Below, in pieces: positions 30,983 to 39,584 of a DNA stretch of 43,730 bases (positions are counted from its first letter, which is position 1; each line of letters opens with the position of its first letter). The translations under genes were made by a program, and so were the position numbers. The stretch is from an uncultured Bacillus sp. (GTDB lineage Bacteria > Bacillota > Bacilli > Bacillales > Cytobacillaceae), in contig CAURFY010000001.1 of NCBI GenBank assembly GCA_963524115.1, positions 1-43,730 on the forward strand. Direction: 5' to 3'. The notes beneath the pieces are model-generated. The model worked only from the letters and a program-made list of their open reading frames with translations. It made no database searches and was not told the origin of the DNA.

Positions 30983-31318
30983 TAGTCAAAAAACAACACA
31001 CTGGAGATTGGTGTGTTGTTTTTATTTCTCCTGAAGGATGTTTTAATGTAAGTTTTTCTAGATTCGCCTGTTCCCATGCAACACTTTGACTTCTATTTTT
31101 GTCGATTTTATGAAATCTTAGCTGGATAATCAATGTAAATTAATGTAAACTTTCCCAACCTTTAATAATGTAGGTGTATAATTATCATTGTGTCATCTGG
31201 TGATTTTTGTCACAAATACATAATAGGAATTTACGATAAACACTATGATTTTATTACTTATTACAAGCGTTAGTAATATTTTCATAAATAAAATGACTTC
31301 CGTTGTTAGGAGGACCAA

Positions 31319-31936
31319 ATGGAAAAATCTATAAGGGTGATGATTATCGACAACCATCTATTTACTATCGATGCTATTTCCTATTTTTTCGAAAATGAGG
31401 AAACAGATATTGAAGTAGTTTGTAAGCTAACTGATGGAAAAAGGGCAATCAGTTTGATTAACGAAACTAAGCCAGATATTATTGTGATGGATCCATATTT
31501 AACCAATATAAATGGAGTAGAATTAGCAAGGCAGATTAGTGAGAAATATCAAGATTCGATAAAACTGGTAATGTTTGCAAGCCATTCTTGTGAGGAGTTA
31601 ATAAGAATTCTTTTTAAAATCGGAGTAAATGCTTTTGTACTCAAGGAAGAGCCGTTTAAGGTGCTGATTAATGCTGTTAGGCAAAGCTATTTAGGCAATA
31701 TTTTACTCTCTAATAGAAAAATTTTAAAACATACTAATCTACAATTGACCATGACAGAAATAGAAATACTGCAATTAATTTCACAAGAAAAAAAGAATCA
31801 GGAAATTGCCAAATTATTAAATATGAGTAAAAGAACAGTAGAATATCATATTACCTCGTTATTTCAAAAACTCGATGTTGATTCAAGAGTTGGTGCGATT
31901 ATGAGGGGTGCTCAGAAAGGGCTAATTTACATATAA
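31319..31936 (+). CDS. Orphan NarL/LuxR-family response regulator, ComA-like
   Basis: REC domain (IIDNH, IVMD, VLKE) plus LuxR HTH NQEIA..L.MSKRTVEYHITSLFQKL. Confidence 0.9.
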   Translation: MEKSIRVMIIDNHLFTIDAISYFFENEETDIEVVCKLTDGKRAISLINETKPDIIVMDPYLTNINGVELARQISEKYQDSIKLVMFASHSCEELIRILFKIGVNAFVLKEEPFKVLINAVRQSYLGNILLSNRKILKHTNLQLTMTEIEILQLISQEKKNQEIAKLLNMSKRTVEYHITSLFQKLDVDSRVGAIMRGAQKGLIYI

Positions 31937-32056
31937 ATAATCAATAATGTTGACACATTGGACATAGATCAGATACTTAAACCTCTCGACATTTAAATAC
32001 AGGTTCCTAGTGCATTCTGACTATAAACTCTAAAAAATGTTTTTTTTTGACTCTTT

Positions 32057-32072
32057 TTGCGGAATCGCGCAA
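32057..32072. promoter_or_regulatory. ComA-box-like inverted repeat upstream of the peptide cassette
   Basis: TTGCGG-aatc-GCGCAA versus consensus TTGCGG-N4-CCGCAA (one mismatch). Confidence 0.65.
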
Positions 32073-32228
32073 AAAATATACGAAAACTAACACTAAAATT
32101 GTCGGAAAATACGATGTTTTGGAAAAATGATAAATTATATTATTAGATTAACAAATTGATAAAGGTTAAAAACACGGTTTCATCTTTTTAATCTTTTCAA
32201 TAAAAATGAATAATAGGAGGTGAAATGC

Positions 32229-32318
32229 ATGTTAGCATTAGCTCTTTCTTTAGCAGCAGTACTTGATCTATCTCCAGTATTTGGTCTTTTAGGTGGTTTA
32301 CTAGGTGGTTTACTTTAA
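32229..32318 (+). CDS. 29-aa hydrophobic glycine-zipper peptide, copy 1: MLALALSLAAVLDLSPVFGLLGGLLGGLL
   Basis: AGGAGGTGA RBS with 8-nt GGAGG-ATG spacing; paralogous to copies 2 and 3. Confidence 0.88.
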   Translation: MLALALSLAAVLDLSPVFGLLGGLLGGLL

Positions 32319-32351
32319 TTTTTATTTAAGCAAAGGATGGAGGTGAAATGC

Positions 32352-32441
32352 ATGTTATCATTAGGACTTTCATTAGCAGCATTACTTGATCTAACTCCAG
32401 TGTTTGGTCTTTTAGGCGGTCTACTAGGTGGTTTGCTTTAA
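32352..32441 (+). CDS. 29-aa peptide, copy 2: MLSLGLSLAALLDLTPVFGLLGGLLGGLL
   Basis: GGAGGTGA RBS; same length and frame structure. Confidence 0.88.
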   Translation: MLSLGLSLAALLDLTPVFGLLGGLLGGLL

Positions 32442-32474
32442 TTCTGATTTAAGTAAAGGGCGGAGGTGAAACGC

Positions 32475-32564
32475 ATGTTAGCATTAGCTCTTTCATTAGC
32501 AGCAGTTCTTGATTTAACTCCAGTGTTTGGTCTTTTAGGAGGTCTTCTTGGTGGATTACTTTAA
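32475..32564 (+). CDS. 29-aa peptide, copy 3: MLALALSLAAVLDLTPVFGLLGGLLGGLL
   Basis: GGAGGTGA RBS; differs from copy 1 at 8 synonymous codons and 1 S/T change. Confidence 0.88.
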   Translation: MLALALSLAAVLDLTPVFGLLGGLLGGLL

Positions 32565-32584
32565 TAGGTTACATAATTTTTAAT

Positions 32585-32630
32585 TAATAAAAGAGTCTTC
32601 CAACTCATAAGGTGTAAGACTCTTTTATTA
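32585..32630 (+). terminator. Terminator of the peptide operon (possibly bidirectional)
   Basis: TAATAAAAGAGTCTT...AAGACTCTTTTATTA. Confidence 0.8.
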
Positions 32631-32655
32631 TATTTTTTTTCGGTAACTATTCTTA

Positions 32656-32953
32656 TTACAGAAAATATTTCGCGTTTAGTGATTTCTCACATCTACTTAA
32701 TTCATGCGGTGTTCCTTCAAATAGGACCTCTCCACCTTTAATACCACCTTCTGGTCCAATATCAATAATCCAATCTGCCTGTTTCATAATATCTACATTA
32801 ATGGTTGGCCGAGGGTTAAATAACCAATCCCCATTTCTTCAAGTGCCACTAAACGCACGTTGATTTTCTTTTCATCGAAAAACAGGATTGCTTCACTCAC
32901 TGTCATTTCTAGTACTTCTAAGATCGTTTTACTTTTGTCAGGTGTATTTCAGG
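32656..32953 (-). pseudogene. Decayed C-terminal remnant of a UvrA-like (class II/DrrC-type) ABC ATPase
   Basis: KTILEVLEMTVSEAILFF...[11 protein letters not shown] joined out of frame to [30 protein letters not shown]. Confidence 0.85.
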
Positions 32954-36428: not shown

Positions 36429-37721
36429 GTGAAAACGTTTTATTTTAAAAAAACCTTTGTAATTATGATCACTACAACTATCATTGTATTTACACCGCTT
36501 ATGCTTATATTTACTTCAGAAAATGGTAAAATCTCCCCGACCTTAACAAACCAAAAAGCCTATGCTATCGATGTTGGAATTTTAGAATTACAGAAATTAG
36601 ACGCCTCCTTTAATTCTGTAACTGGAGAACTTGTTTTGAATATTAATGGAGTGACACTGGCAACTGTTGGAAGTACTCAACAGTTTGTTTATCAGCTTCC
36701 GGAAGAATTAAAATTGATTCTAACCCATCCGCATTTTAGTGACTACGCAAAAATTGACTATAGGTGTACTTTGCTTTTAGGGCTCTTTCCAATAGAAGGA
36801 ACTATTCCTGGCAGTTCATTAAAAGTGGATAGTTTGGATGGTACAGTAATTGGCGCATCAGGGCTTGCTCTTTCAATTGGCTCCCCCGTTAGCGCAATGC
36901 TAAGGATTAATTTATACCAATTAGGATTTTCATCACTACCACCAAGCCAGGATGGTAAGCTTGATTTTTATGCTATGGCGGCTAAGGGTAATGCGGGTCT
37001 TATAGATATTAAACTAGAATTACTAACAAACCATGATACGTATGATTATATTGACACGGGGGTAGATGACAACATTGCACCCGACCCGCCAGTATTAAAT
37101 TCTGTGACTGATGTTGATGAAGTCGTAACAGGAAAGGGGGAAATTGGTGCAACAGTTCATATTGTCACGCCTTCAAATAGCTATACTGGGATTGTAGATA
37201 CTCTTGGAACCTATTCAGTTGCTATTCCAGCCCAAGATGCTGGTACAGTAATTACCGCGTCGCAAACAGACACAGCAGGAAATGTAAGTGGAACAAGTAC
37301 AACCGTAGTAATTGGAACAAAACTTGATTTTACAGTTCCAACCGAAATTCGTTTTAAGAGTACTTCAATTGGCTTTCATGAGGTGACGGTCCCAAGGGAA
37401 ATTCCGAGTATGTCTGTAAAAGTTTACGATACTCGTGGAAATGAATCAAAGTGGAAAATAAAAGCAAGGGCTGTCGAGCCTCTAACTTCTACCGATGGAG
37501 AGACTCTTGATCCCACTGCGCTTATATTTGTAAAAGCTGATCAGGTAAAATATTTAAAAGATGAAACTCTTATTTATGATGGAGTTACAGGGCAAGACAG
37601 GGAAACAATAATTACTTGGAATGAAAATGAAGGAATATTAATAAAACTCATTCCTAGTGAAGTTCATCCAGGAGTTGAATACTCCACCACAATTAATTGG
37701 ACAATAGAAAAAGCCCCATAG
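36429..37721 (+). CDS. Large WxL surface protein: N-terminal export segment, putative adhesive domain, bacterial Ig-like repeat, C-terminal WxL domain
   Basis: DNIAPDPPVLN...DTAGNVS Ig repeat; terminal YSTTINWTIEKAP. Confidence 0.8.
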   Translation: MKTFYFKKTFVIMITTTIIVFTPLMLIFTSENGKISPTLTNQKAYAIDVGILELQKLDASFNSVTGELVLNINGVTLATVGSTQQFVYQLPEELKLILTHPHFSDYAKIDYRCTLLLGLFPIEGTIPGSSLKVDSLDGTVIGASGLALSIGSPVSAMLRINLYQLGFSSLPPSQDGKLDFYAMAAKGNAGLIDIKLELLTNHDTYDYIDTGVDDNIAPDPPVLNSVTDVDEVVTGKGEIGATVHIVTPSNSYTGIVDTLGTYSVAIPAQDAGTVITASQTDTAGNVSGTSTTVVIGTKLDFTVPTEIRFKSTSIGFHEVTVPREIPSMSVKVYDTRGNESKWKIKARAVEPLTSTDGETLDPTALIFVKADQVKYLKDETLIYDGVTGQDRETIITWNENEGILIKLIPSEVHPGVEYSTTINWTIEKAP

Positions 37722-37774
37722 AATCTGCAACTATTTTTGCAATGTTTTTGAGAATAAAAAAGGAGGTCAATATT

Positions 37775-38467
37775 GTGCGATTATCTAAGTATGCCTTATT
37801 TGGTGTTGCATCTATTCTGTCTCTGTCATTTTTCTCACAAGGAGTTTTAGTTTTTGCAGATTCTATAGGAACTTCAAACGCAACAATTGAATTTAGTGAA
37901 GACACAACTGTTCCGCCAGTTTTAGATCCAACTGATCCAACTCATCCATATGTCCCAGGTGGAGGTGATAATCCTCCAACGGGAAATTCAGGACCGCTAA
38001 GTCTTGACTACGTTTCTCATTTGAATTTTGGTCCACAAGTTATATCTATAAAGAATGTTACTTATGAAGCGGAAACTTTAAAACCATTTATTCAAGTAAC
38101 AGACAAACGGGCCAATCCAGATGGTTGGCATGTTACCGTTAAGGCATCACCTTTTGCTAGTAGTAGTTTACATGAATTAACGGGTGCATATTTGACATTT
38201 AAAAATGGTGAAACTCTATCAGATCTTGGAGCCATGTATGGTCCACCAAAAACTGGACCATTTACCTTATATACAGATAGCCAAGCTGTTAAAGTTGTTT
38301 ATGCAAATGTAAATGAAGGGCGTGGATCATGGATTACAAGATGGTTTCCTAAAACTCCCTCAGGACCTACTAAGAATGATAGTGTAATGTTAACGGTCTA
38401 TGGTGGGACTATGAAAGCAGAATCCTATAATTCACAATTGACATGGACATTAACTACCGCTCCATAA
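37775..38467 (+). CDS. Small WxL domain protein (CscB-like)
   Basis: Signal peptide; GPLSLDYV..LNFG, QVTDKR...GW and YNSQLTWTLTTAP; AAGGAGG before GTG 37775. Confidence 0.92.
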   Translation: MRLSKYALFGVASILSLSFFSQGVLVFADSIGTSNATIEFSEDTTVPPVLDPTDPTHPYVPGGGDNPPTGNSGPLSLDYVSHLNFGPQVISIKNVTYEAETLKPFIQVTDKRANPDGWHVTVKASPFASSSLHELTGAYLTFKNGETLSDLGAMYGPPKTGPFTLYTDSQAVKVVYANVNEGRGSWITRWFPKTPSGPTKNDSVMLTVYGGTMKAESYNSQLTWTLTTAP

Positions 38468-38558
38468 AGTGTTAACTAAACTAGTCTCGAATAATAGGGT
38501 AATTCTATTGTTCGAGGCTTTTCTTTTCTGAAATTGATTGTATAGCGGGGTATGTAGG

Positions 38559-39584
38559 ATGAAGCATTTAAAAATAGCCATATTATTTGTTATTTCAATT
38601 CTACTATTGTTGAATATAAATCTGTCACAGGTTAAAGCTAAGGAGGAAAGTGTTGGTTATTCAGTTCGAGCAATTATCCCTGAGAATCAAATTGATCATA
38701 GTATCTCTTATTTTGATTTAAGAATGAGCCCTAACCAACATCAAGAGATTCAAACTGAAATTTTCAATAGTTCTAATGAAGATATAAATATTGATGTCCA
38801 TATTACCAACCCAATCACAAATAGTAATGGATTAATAGATTACACTGATTTAGAAGTAAAGACTGATAGGAGTTTGAAAATTCCGATAACAAAGATTGCC
38901 TCAATTAACGATATGACAATAAATATACCTGCGGGGGAGTCAAAGATTGTACCAATTCAACTTGAAATGCCTGAAAAAGAATTTGATGGGATTATTCTCG
39001 GTGGGGTTTATTTTGAAAAACGTATAGAGAAAACCGCGGAGAAAACCAGTGGAGTCCAAATTACTAATAAGTATACCTATGTTCTCGGTTTGAAATTGTC
39101 TGAAACTGAAAATGAAGTTAAACCGAAACTTCATTTGAAATCGGTGTACCCAAATTTGGTGAATTATCATACAGCGGTTATAGCTAATATACAAAATAGT
39201 ACACCAGTGATTGTCGACAAATTGGCTATTAATGCGAAGGTATTTAACTCAAAAGGTAAAGTGGAAAATAGAGTTGATGTTGAAGATTATAAAATGGCGC
39301 CAAACTCTTCAATGGATTTCGTTATTGACTGGAAAAATAAAGAATTGAAGCCAGGCAAATATACTTTATCATTACATGCAAATAGCGGAATCCAAAATTG
39401 GGATTGGGAAAAACAGTTTGTTATCCAAGAAGGTAAGGCAAAAATACTAAATGAGGAAGCAGTTGAAATTTCCAAAGATAATAATTATCTAGTTTATGGC
39501 CTATCCTTCGTTATTTTGATTCTAATAGTTGTCATTGTTTTGTTAATAAGAAAGAACAAACAAAAGATGGATAACCCGGATTGA
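38559..39584 (+). CDS. DUF916/DUF3324 WxL-interacting protein (CscA-like)
   Basis: IPENQID..SYFDLRM.P, TNSNGLIDY, GIILGG and MAPNS motifs; C-terminal TM. Confidence 0.92.
   Translation: MKHLKIAILFVISILLLLNINLSQVKAKEESVGYSVRAIIPENQIDHSISYFDLRMSPNQHQEIQTEIFNSSNEDINIDVHITNPITNSNGLIDYTDLEVKTDRSLKIPITKIASINDMTINIPAGESKIVPIQLEMPEKEFDGIILGGVYFEKRIEKTAEKTSGVQITNKYTYVLGLKLSETENEVKPKLHLKSVYPNLVNYHTAVIANIQNSTPVIVDKLAINAKVFNSKGKVENRVDVEDYKMAPNSSMDFVIDWKNKELKPGKYTLSLHANSGIQNWDWEKQFVIQEGKAKILNEEAVEISKDNNYLVYGLSFVILILIVVIVLLIRKNKQKMDNPD

Follow-up and report, generated by a model that had tools for sequence, protein, structure and literature searches.

What do three nearly identical open reading frames (ORFs) of 29 codons, standing head to tail in the genome of an uncultured Bacillus sp., encode, and for what purpose would their products be made in such a number? 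The question is raised by the first 43,730 nucleotides of contig CAURFY010000001.1 (GenBank assembly GCA_963524115.1), a stretch of DNA referred to hereafter as the window. An earlier note, based on the letters of the window, had described the three frames as genes for small peptides with a glycine zipper, and had listed several possible roles for them. The analysis presented here supports the coding nature of the frames and places them in a module with a dedicated regulator gene and a conserved operator-like repeat, a context which is the most informative one and was not noticed in the earlier note. The genome to which the window belongs is 74% complete and consists of 452 contigs, and every absence mentioned below means that the item was not found in the genomes searched.

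Tandem Repeats Finder reports a single array at 32216-32565 with a period of 123, 2.8 copies and 88% matches, which, together with the ORF list, bears out the exact 123-bp spacing of the three starts described previously (Table 1). Each of the three units is composed of GGAGGTGAAA(T/C)GC, as had been pointed out, followed by ATG, a frame of 29 codons and TAA, with GGAGG sitting 8 nt ahead of each ATG. Alternative GTG- or ATG-started frames of 32-34 residues begin within or just ahead of the Shine-Dalgarno sequence; since their extra residues are not conserved in relatives and their starts overlap or abut the Shine-Dalgarno, the products are considered to be 29 residues in length. The two intergenic spacers differ from each other at 6 of 33 positions, and both differ from the stretch before gene 1 at 14 of 33, the shared ribosome-binding site apart. 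Parts of the stretch were found in 11 public sequencing runs, four of which (X1, X2, X5 and X6) were compared with positions 31300-32700; metagenome shares of 0.07-0.13 in several runs were not used for naming a habitat. Two runs that represent close environmental strains, X1 and X2 (one DNA, one RNA), have 5 nt, TTTAA, duplicated where gene 1 stops (32313), by which the unit becomes 128 bp long. The frame remains intact in these strains, and the 123-bp period as such is therefore not constrained.

Between copies 1 and 3 there are 10 nucleotide differences, spread over 9 codons; eight of these codons are synonymous and one exchanges Ser15 for Thr15, precisely as had been counted before. When 10 random substitutions were introduced into copy 1 in 100,000 simulations, one non-synonymous codon or none was obtained in a fraction of 7e-5 (P=7e-5). 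The same tendency extends to two further species of the genus, designated G005 and G006, in each of which an orthologous two-copy operon is present: among the seven peptide genes of the three species (three of the window, two of G005 and two of G006), the ratio of non-synonymous to synonymous substitution rates (dN/dS, NG86 method) ranges from 0.08 to 0.58 and is below 1 in all 21 pairs. Start, stop and frame are retained in 7/7 of these genes and in five further database peptides, and the frame disruptions for which homologues were to be checked according to the earlier note were not encountered in any of them. Insertions and deletions are confined to the spacers, apart from the sole coding length difference, a 12-nt in-frame extra GL(L/V)G repeat that lengthens the peptides of G006 to 33 aa. 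Every copy is preceded by its own Shine-Dalgarno sequence, and the folding of the operon mRNA is no stronger than that of shuffled sequences (z=0.00), the terminator excepted. At the level of sequence, the conclusion that the three frames are real coding genes under purifying selection is supported.

The family to which these genes belong is very small. A DNA search for the locus in 41 genomes (the window's own and 40 relatives) revealed it in the two further species mentioned above, each with two tandem genes coding for peptides of 29 residues in G005 and 33 in G006, and a peptide profile search of 269 genomes of the taxonomic family returned three, all of them in the window's genus (3 of 7 species). 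Seven clusters were matched among 5.8 billion protein clusters, none with a name beyond “hypothetical protein”. A HMMER profile scan of 1.84 billion representatives gave four matches, including one true relative (P0010); of the remaining three, which were rejected, two are long proteins, rich in Gly, Asp and Asn and with repeats of the GGxGxD type, in which an LDLTG..NLLG string occurs by chance, and one is a repeat protein aligning to a spurious N-terminal extension of a single alignment row. No match for the peptides was obtained in Pfam, NCBIfam, PADLOC or PHROGs at E values up to 1, and none in Rfam at the gathering score, where sub-threshold chance matches alone were seen (e.g., Phe_leader with 24.7 bits against a gathering score of 55). 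A protein-pattern scan of metagenomes matched 595 stretches, with 0 confirmed by tblastn, and a degenerate DNA pattern had 0 matches in metagenomes, both scans being limited by short queries and fixed codons; a pattern scan of genome contigs matched 45 stretches, two of which were confirmed. A protein atlas search yielded no usable match. In a full-text search for peptide strings of 4 to 10 residues no paper on these peptides was found, the matches being limited to leptoglycin-related papers, a paper on a SPLUNC1-derived peptide and one unrelated paper. Judged by these comparisons, the claim that the peptides belong to no described family, which the earlier note had worded as a failure to recognise one, holds.

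Residue conservation was assessed on 12 distinct peptides, namely the products of the seven genes of three species and the five database peptides. Sixteen positions are invariant in all 12: M1, L2, L4, L6, S7, L8, A9, L12, D13, L14, V17, L20, G22, L24, G26 and L28. Thr15 is near-invariant, and the N-terminus, which starts with MLAL or MLSL, contains neither Lys nor Arg. The C-terminal PVFGLLGGLLGGLL, previously described as invariant, is indeed the same in the three window copies despite silent changes; across the family, however, position 18 may be F, V, I or L, position 21 L or V and position 23 G or A. Similarly, the G19-G23-G27 zipper exists in the window copies but is not a property of the family, as Gly is found at position 19 in 8 of 12 peptides, at position 23 in 7 and at position 27 in 11, the substitutes being Ala, Ser or Asn (Gly, Ala, Ser or Asn at position 19; Gly or Ala at positions 23 and 27). 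The conserved pair is G22/G26, and the conserved packing motif would accordingly be better written as G22xxxG26 flanked by small residues. Motifs of the GxxxG and glycine-zipper kind drive the packing of transmembrane helices. The invariant G22xxxG26, Gly or Ala at positions 23 and 27 and the small residue at position 19 would lie on one face of the predicted helix, as in glycine-zipper helices; what sets the peptides apart from these is that the GxxxGxxxG pattern (19-23-27) of the window copies is not family-conserved, and self-association may only be presumed.

Two types of peptide, with Ala3 and with Ser/Thr3, stand side by side in the window and in G006; in G005 both copies are of the Ala3 type. 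The database pairs P0003/P0005 and P0006/P0007 also combine an Ala3 with a Ser/Thr3 type, and contig statistics are identical within each pair. The two types may be old paralogues working together.

Apart from one invariant Asp, the peptides are composed almost wholly of Leu, Gly, Ala and Val. Biophysical scoring of 11 peptides gave grand average of hydropathy (GRAVY) values of 1.8-2.1, and the Eisenberg helical hydrophobic moment of the whole peptide was 0.06-0.09 in 11/11, meaning that there is no polar face. Asp13, correctly singled out earlier as the one charged residue and invariant in 12/12 peptides, is the sole ionisable side chain; Lys, Arg and His are absent and the net charge is negative. 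The Wimley-White octanol sum is negative in 11/11 peptides, even with Asp counted as charged. For residues 17-29 the side-chain-size moment at 100 degrees exceeds that of shuffled sequences (P=0.012), which suggests that a Gly/small face is opposed to a Leu face in the C-terminal half, as had been proposed. From an 11-row alignment AlphaFold2 predicts a single helix spanning residues 2-32 of a 33-residue homologue (mean predicted local distance difference test score, pLDDT, of 88.5). The prediction of a four-copy complex of a 33-residue homologue, run without controls, reached scores of 0.26 and 0.28 against a mark of 0.42 and is uninformative on self-association.

The gene upstream of the array codes for a response regulator, the orthologues of which, at 75-76% identity, were found solely in the two other peptide-bearing genomes, the other four genomes of the genus having paralogues of 28-34% identity only. 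In the window the regulator and the peptide genes are flanked by a glycerate kinase gene upstream and by a UvrA-like remnant and a gene for a DUF2231 protein downstream. In the other two species the flanks are formed by DUF3939 and a TrkH-family cation transporter, TrkH being the next gene downstream; the DUF3939 orthologue of the window genome resides on another contig, and the DNA beside DUF3939 varies between species. Since the regulator and peptide genes are linked in 3/3 carrier genomes while the flanking genes change, they constitute a two-part module. Beside the module, genes for kinases, exporters, proteases or modifying enzymes were found in neither genomic context. In particular, no exporter adjoins it in the three loci, although no genome-wide search for Pmt was made; the ATP-binding cassette (ABC) system near the module in the window has a binding protein of the amino-acid type.

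In all three orthologues of the regulator the second position of the acidic pocket is taken by Asn, giving Asp-Asn against the typical Asp-Asp (aligned with VraR, DesR and NarL). The phospho-site residue is Asp in the window protein and Glu in 2/3 orthologues, and the receiver Ser and Lys positions are retained. The ORFs of 90 aa or more in the 4 kb to the left and right of the two related loci yielded no histidine kinase, nor was a kinase gene found among those annotated around the module of the window. Pseudo-receiver atypical response regulators are defined in a passage of PMC12632262 by the lack of one or more of five residues conserved in receivers; according to the same passage the replacements met most often are Asn at the second acidic position and Glu at the phospho-site, the latter being able to mimic phosphorylation in part. 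The present proteins share with those of that passage both of the commonest substitutions as well as the orphan status, with the difference that the window copy retains the phospho-Asp and is a pseudo-receiver but not an aspartate-less one. Because receiver residues needed for normal phosphotransfer are replaced and no kinase is adjacent, the regulator is an orphan atypical response regulator, which probably needs no kinase for its activity or is under some other control.

The recognition helix of the regulator (MSKRTVEYHITS) has 10 identities over 18 aligned residues, counted by eye, with that of ComA (LSKRSIEYSLTS) and 5 with that of a LiaR-type domain (ITLKTVKTHVSN). The DNA-binding domain as a whole scores about equally against several solved GerE-type domains, and the overall similarity to ComA in the PDB is no higher than that to VraR or LiaR-type proteins. 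Distant relatives of 34-43% identity from four other genera share an S(K/Q/R)RT(V/A)E(Y/H/R)H helix, have Asp-Asp and the phospho-Asp wherever the match covers those positions, and are directly preceded by a NarX/LiaS-type kinase gene in 3/3 loci whose upstream gene was scanned. Downstream of them, no hydrophobic small ORFs with a Shine-Dalgarno sequence and a resemblance to the peptides were detected. As the distant relatives retain both kinase and phosphochemistry, the peptide-linked clade looks like a ComA-like two-component regulator that has lost the two. One distant relative from another genus, L046 (G071:C1:743679-744215), contains two TAA stops in frame, is missing its first 21 residues and is probably a pseudogene.

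Between the regulator stop and the conserved footprint ahead of the peptide genes (Table 1) the DNA does not align across species, and the 5' untranslated region (UTR) has diverged as well. The footprint contains a repeat, TTGCGGAATC(G/A)CGCAA, in which 11 of 12 bases agree with the ComA box. Its end lies 26 bp ahead of the candidate -35, and it is the sole match of the window at up to 2 mismatches. A passage of PMC4797271 describes the B. subtilis ComA site as two TTGCGG hexamers in inverted orientation, separated by a 4-nt spacer. In regulator and operator, ComA and its box come closest among the known systems: in both cases a receiver is joined to a GerE-type helix-turn-helix (HTH) with a similar recognition helix, and an operator with agreement at 11 of 12 bases stands ahead of a weak -35. 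Unlike ComA at the srfA, rapA and rapC promoters, however, the present regulator has no ComX (PF05952; 0/5 genus genomes, with the B. subtilis control matched below the curated cut-off) and no adjacent kinase, the accompanying direct repeat was not seen, the pocket is Asp-Asn in 3/3 and the phospho-Asp is lost in 2/3 orthologues, and the putative target is a ribosomal peptide operon.

The candidate promoter next to the repeat, for which TATTAT at 32138-32143 would be an alternative -10, appears to be sub-consensus, as expected for an activator-dependent one. ATACGA occurs twice (32078-32083 and 32109-32114), 31 bp apart and with the candidate -35 between the copies; all three species retain the two, and the pair may be the site of a second factor. 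About 85 bp within 31937-32040, between the regulator stop and the footprint, are present in the window only. Of all matches to the promoter consensus in the region, the best (TTGACA, 16 nt, GATACT, 31950-31977) lies in this stretch and could add a second, regulator-independent start in the window species.

At its other end the operon is closed by an intrinsic terminator, and in both other species, too, a hairpin and a T run were read by eye after the last peptide gene. An attenuator with Leu codons was also considered and was rejected, as only this terminator follows the peptide genes. The sole contig of the RNA library on 31300-32700 (251 nt) spans 32173-32418 without mismatches besides the TTTAA duplication; it comprises the 5' UTR, gene 1 and most of gene 2, and bridges gene 1 into gene 2. 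No contig of this library lies on the regulator gene, which is covered by the DNA runs, and parts of the stretch that lack cover in the RNA library are not evidence of silence.

Table 1. Coordinates of the regulator gene, control elements and peptide genes in the window.
Feature	Position	Strand	Basis
NarL/LuxR-type regulator gene, 205 aa, receiver + GerE HTH; candidate activator of the peptide operon	31319..31936	+	Pfam Response_reg 3.3e-17, GerE 3e-16
Conserved promoter/operator footprint	32041..32165	+	Three-species alignment, nearly identical, gap-free from the repeat to AACAAAT(T/C)GA
Inverted repeat TTGCGG-AATC-GCGCAA, ComA-box-like; candidate regulator site	32057..32072	+	Same place in 3/3 species
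Candidate weak sigma-A-type promoter: TTGTCG, 18-nt spacer, TGg, AAAAAT	32099..32128	+	By eye; conserved in 3 species
Shine-Dalgarno GGAGGTG (32216-32222) and peptide gene 1, ATG 32229, stop 32316-32318, 29 aa	32216..32318	+	Sequence, ORF list
Shine-Dalgarno and peptide gene 2, ATG 32352, stop 32439-41, 29 aa; variant Ser3, Gly5, Leu11	32339..32441	+	Sequence, ORF list
Shine-Dalgarno and peptide gene 3, ATG 32475, stop 32562-64, 29 aa	32462..32564	+	Sequence, ORF list
Intrinsic terminator, 21-nt arms 32585-32605 and 32610-32630, 90% complementary, then T run	32585..32640	+	Fold analysis; missed by consensus scan

The best reading of these data, to which we would give about an even chance, is that of a self-contained two-part module in which the regulator drives the bulk production of membrane-inserting helical peptides that pack through their Gly face. 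The regulator would bind the TTGCGG-N4-NCGCAA repeat 26 bp ahead of the weak -35 and thereby activate the operon, and this short, terminator-bounded unit of two to three near-identical genes with strong ribosome-binding sites would then give rise to peptides of 29-33 residues. Having no signal peptide and being far too hydrophobic for water, the peptides are expected to partition into the membrane, which they would enter as single helices; these may pack side by side via G22, G26 and the small residues 19, 23 and 27, with Asp13 buried in the bilayer. The amplification of the gene suggests that the peptides are needed in bulk, and a bulk need in turn points to a membrane-acting effector and not to a stoichiometric regulator. 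Such an effector might alter the permeability, packing or surface properties of the membrane of the producer or of a neighbour.

Several observations speak against this scheme and must be borne in mind. Residues 1-15 alternate between large and small, with a size moment at 180 degrees (P=0.015), and a beta-strand, or an assembly of the amyloid kind outside the membrane, would be just as compatible with this periodicity of the N-terminal half. Small membrane proteins usually have a positive residue by which a transmembrane helix is oriented, and the peptides have none; translation and membrane location are both deduced indirectly. As for the operator, shuffled versions of the window give 0.93 ComA-box matches at up to 2 mismatches, and TTGCGG-N5-CGCAA is present 2-3 times per genome. 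As the repeat arises at chance level, the weight given to it comes from its conservation and position and not from its occurrence. Four other operator-like matches in the three genomes are likewise at chance level (of two that were inspected, one is situated where a PhoH-like gene ends and the other within a coding frame), and no wider regulon of the repeat was found in these genomes. Furthermore, the direct repeat of the ComA box (TTGCGG-N5-TTGCGG) was not seen by eye in the 26 bp before the -35, an element which, according to a passage of PMC4797271, is degenerate even in B. subtilis. The promoter hexamers were read by eye and were not called by the consensus scan. Finally, the RNA contig is a hint of expression only, because contigs show neither strand nor ends nor level and carry-over of DNA is possible.

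The rival explanations differ chiefly in the site at which the peptides would act. In gene layout, the closest known system is the alpha-type phenol-soluble modulin (alpha-PSM) operon of S. aureus with AgrA. A passage of PMC6428751 describes this operon as four peptides on one transcript, directly activated by AgrA and without a signal sequence, and PSMs as amphipathic helices of 20-25 residues with a dedicated exporter, Pmt, AgrA being tied to cell density via agr. Common to both systems are very short peptides encoded head to tail and, in the window presumably, on a single transcript, without a signal sequence and each with its own start, as well as a response regulator, the binding of which we infer in the present case. 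On the other hand, the peptides of the window have no polar face (0.06-0.09), no basic residue, a negative net charge and no adjacent exporter, they bear no sequence relation to PSMs (0 Pfam families at E up to 1), and their regulator, unlike AgrA, is of the NarL type, with a degenerate receiver and no adjacent kinase. The peptides are PSM-like in gene layout and, not being amphipathic, differ from PSMs in chemistry, and the amphipathic surfactant role that had been suggested for them fits poorly with both the low moment and the lack of a cationic residue.

The layout nevertheless lends some credit to the view that the peptides are secreted and act, as antimicrobial or surface-active agents, on the membranes or interfaces of other cells, which we consider possible but rather unlikely. 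They could then be a leaderless multi-peptide bacteriocin or a counterpart of the neutral Gly/Leu-rich peptides. Tandem, slightly different leaderless copies resemble leaderless multi-peptide bacteriocins as well as the alpha-PSM operon, and the adjacent Ala3 and Ser/Thr3 types hint at two cooperating peptides. Leptoglycin (GLLGGLLGPLLGGGGGGGGGLL), a neutral, Gly/Leu-rich frog skin peptide, is listed in a passage of PMC10876013 with a minimum inhibitory concentration (MIC) of 8 uM for P. aeruginosa, and thus exemplifies such a peptide active against Gram-negatives. The GLLGGLLG string and the dominance of Gly and Leu are shared with it, and no closer analogue in composition could be documented, the likeness being one of composition and not of homology: leptoglycin is an animal peptide of 22 residues that is cut from a precursor and has a poly-Gly run, whereas the bacterial peptides possess a distinct, highly conserved N-terminal half ending in LDLTP. 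The non-ribosomal peptide synthetase (NRPS) condensation domain was found in 0/5 genus genomes, with the B. subtilis control above the curated cut-off, so that the genus appears to make no lipopeptide surfactant. Against secretion stands the lack, in both contexts, of an exporter, immunity or processing gene beside the module, the neighbours being housekeeping or unrelated genes. The absence of a cationic residue and of a polar face distinguishes the peptides from PSMs and from leaderless and two-peptide bacteriocins alike, no Pfam family matches at E up to 1, and at a GRAVY of about 2 they would hardly be soluble once released.

If export and immunity genes are not needed, as in a peptide directed at its own producer, the bare two-part module is accounted for, and the peptides might be stress or dormancy factors that depolarise the producer's membrane in the manner of type I toxins, one of which, TisB, also has 29 residues. 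Size, hydrophobicity, a carboxylate in the middle of the membrane and a small-residue face would all suit a small pore or proton leak. This explanation is nonetheless doubtful. No antisense RNA gene is evident, the promoter-like sites of the minus strand all point away from the genes and none of them is convergent over the genes (no strand-specific RNA was used), and the mRNA, with a fold z-score of 0.00, is not unusually structured. An exposed-looking strong Shine-Dalgarno sequence ahead of each gene is the opposite of the tight repression of translation to which type I toxins, with a structured mRNA that conceals the ribosome-binding site, are usually subject, a protein activator seems to be in control, and two to three copies are odd for a self-toxin.

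Of similarly low probability is a kinase-less circuit for autoinduction or membrane sensing, in which the ComA-family regulator, having lost phosphotransfer, would instead be controlled by its own tandem hydrophobic peptides, either through a processed fragment or through membrane load. The peptides would then be, in a genus without NRPS, a ribosomal stand-in for the ComA-driven surfactin of B. subtilis.

The small subunits KdpF, MgrB and AcrZ tune larger membrane proteins, and an invariant Asp and Ser7 together with a near-invariant Thr15 in a greasy helix do resemble a specific contact surface. The peptides could accordingly be accessory subunits of a transporter or sensor, with the buried Asp13 paired with a basic residue of the partner, a proposal that we hold to be improbable. 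The TrkH-family transporter directly downstream in two species came into question as a partner and was rejected, since the module of the window has no TrkH beside it; where TrkH does adjoin the module, a terminator separates it from the peptide genes. No other partner gene travels with the module either, and two to three copies with strong ribosome-binding sites favour bulk over stoichiometric amounts.

Still less probable are precursors of a hydrophobic signalling peptide that is cut in the membrane, released and sensed, possibly by the kinase-less regulator itself. Streptococcal SHP and XIP pheromones are made as precursors with a basic N-terminus and are recognised by an RRNPP-type receptor (Rgg or ComR). 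A conserved acidic residue within a hydrophobic peptide, followed by a hydrophobic Gly-rich C-terminus, does recall SHPs, and the adjacent dedicated regulator, which moves together with the peptides, has lost phospho-signalling and needs another input. Yet this regulator consists of a receiver and a GerE domain and is not of the RRNPP/Rgg kind, and no receiver domain known to us binds a peptide. The peptides lack the basic N-terminus of the SHP/XIP precursors, conservation extends over their full length and not just the C-terminal part, and no peptide exporter is adjacent.

Scarcely credible, finally, is the view that the array is an untranslated cis-regulatory or RNA element with incidental frames: the family is very small and its translation is deduced from sequence, but changes are concentrated at synonymous sites in 21/21 pairs, frame, start and stop are kept while indels fall into spacers, and neither an Rfam match at gathering score nor an excess of RNA structure was found.

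Two features of the surrounding DNA may be added. Right after the peptide terminator, at 32656-32906 on the minus strand, two short frames are what is left of a gene for a UvrA-like ABC ATPase (E=4e-17 for a 43-aa frame against UvrA C-termini), and this decayed gene suggests a rearrangement scar at the edge of the module. Farther downstream, at 36429-39584, lies a cell-surface cluster coding for a Big_6/WxL protein, a WxL protein and a WxL-interacting protein with peptidoglycan-binding and host-binding domains.

Very small hydrophobic proteins mostly escape annotation, and the clusters matched here are indeed named “hypothetical protein” only. A compact cassette composed of a regulator, an operator, two to three peptide genes and a terminator offers a clean handle on one such family, which is carried by two named Bacillus strains, in records titled Bacillus sp. 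DNRA2 and Bacillus marasmi, and for which there is a hint of expression in soil. With the phospho-site Asp in one orthologue and Glu in two, and with an apparently single dedicated target for each of the three, the regulators form a natural series for the question of how pseudo-receivers are controlled. If the peptides prove to be membrane-active, they would represent an anionic, non-amphipathic class, unlike either PSMs or cationic bacteriocins.

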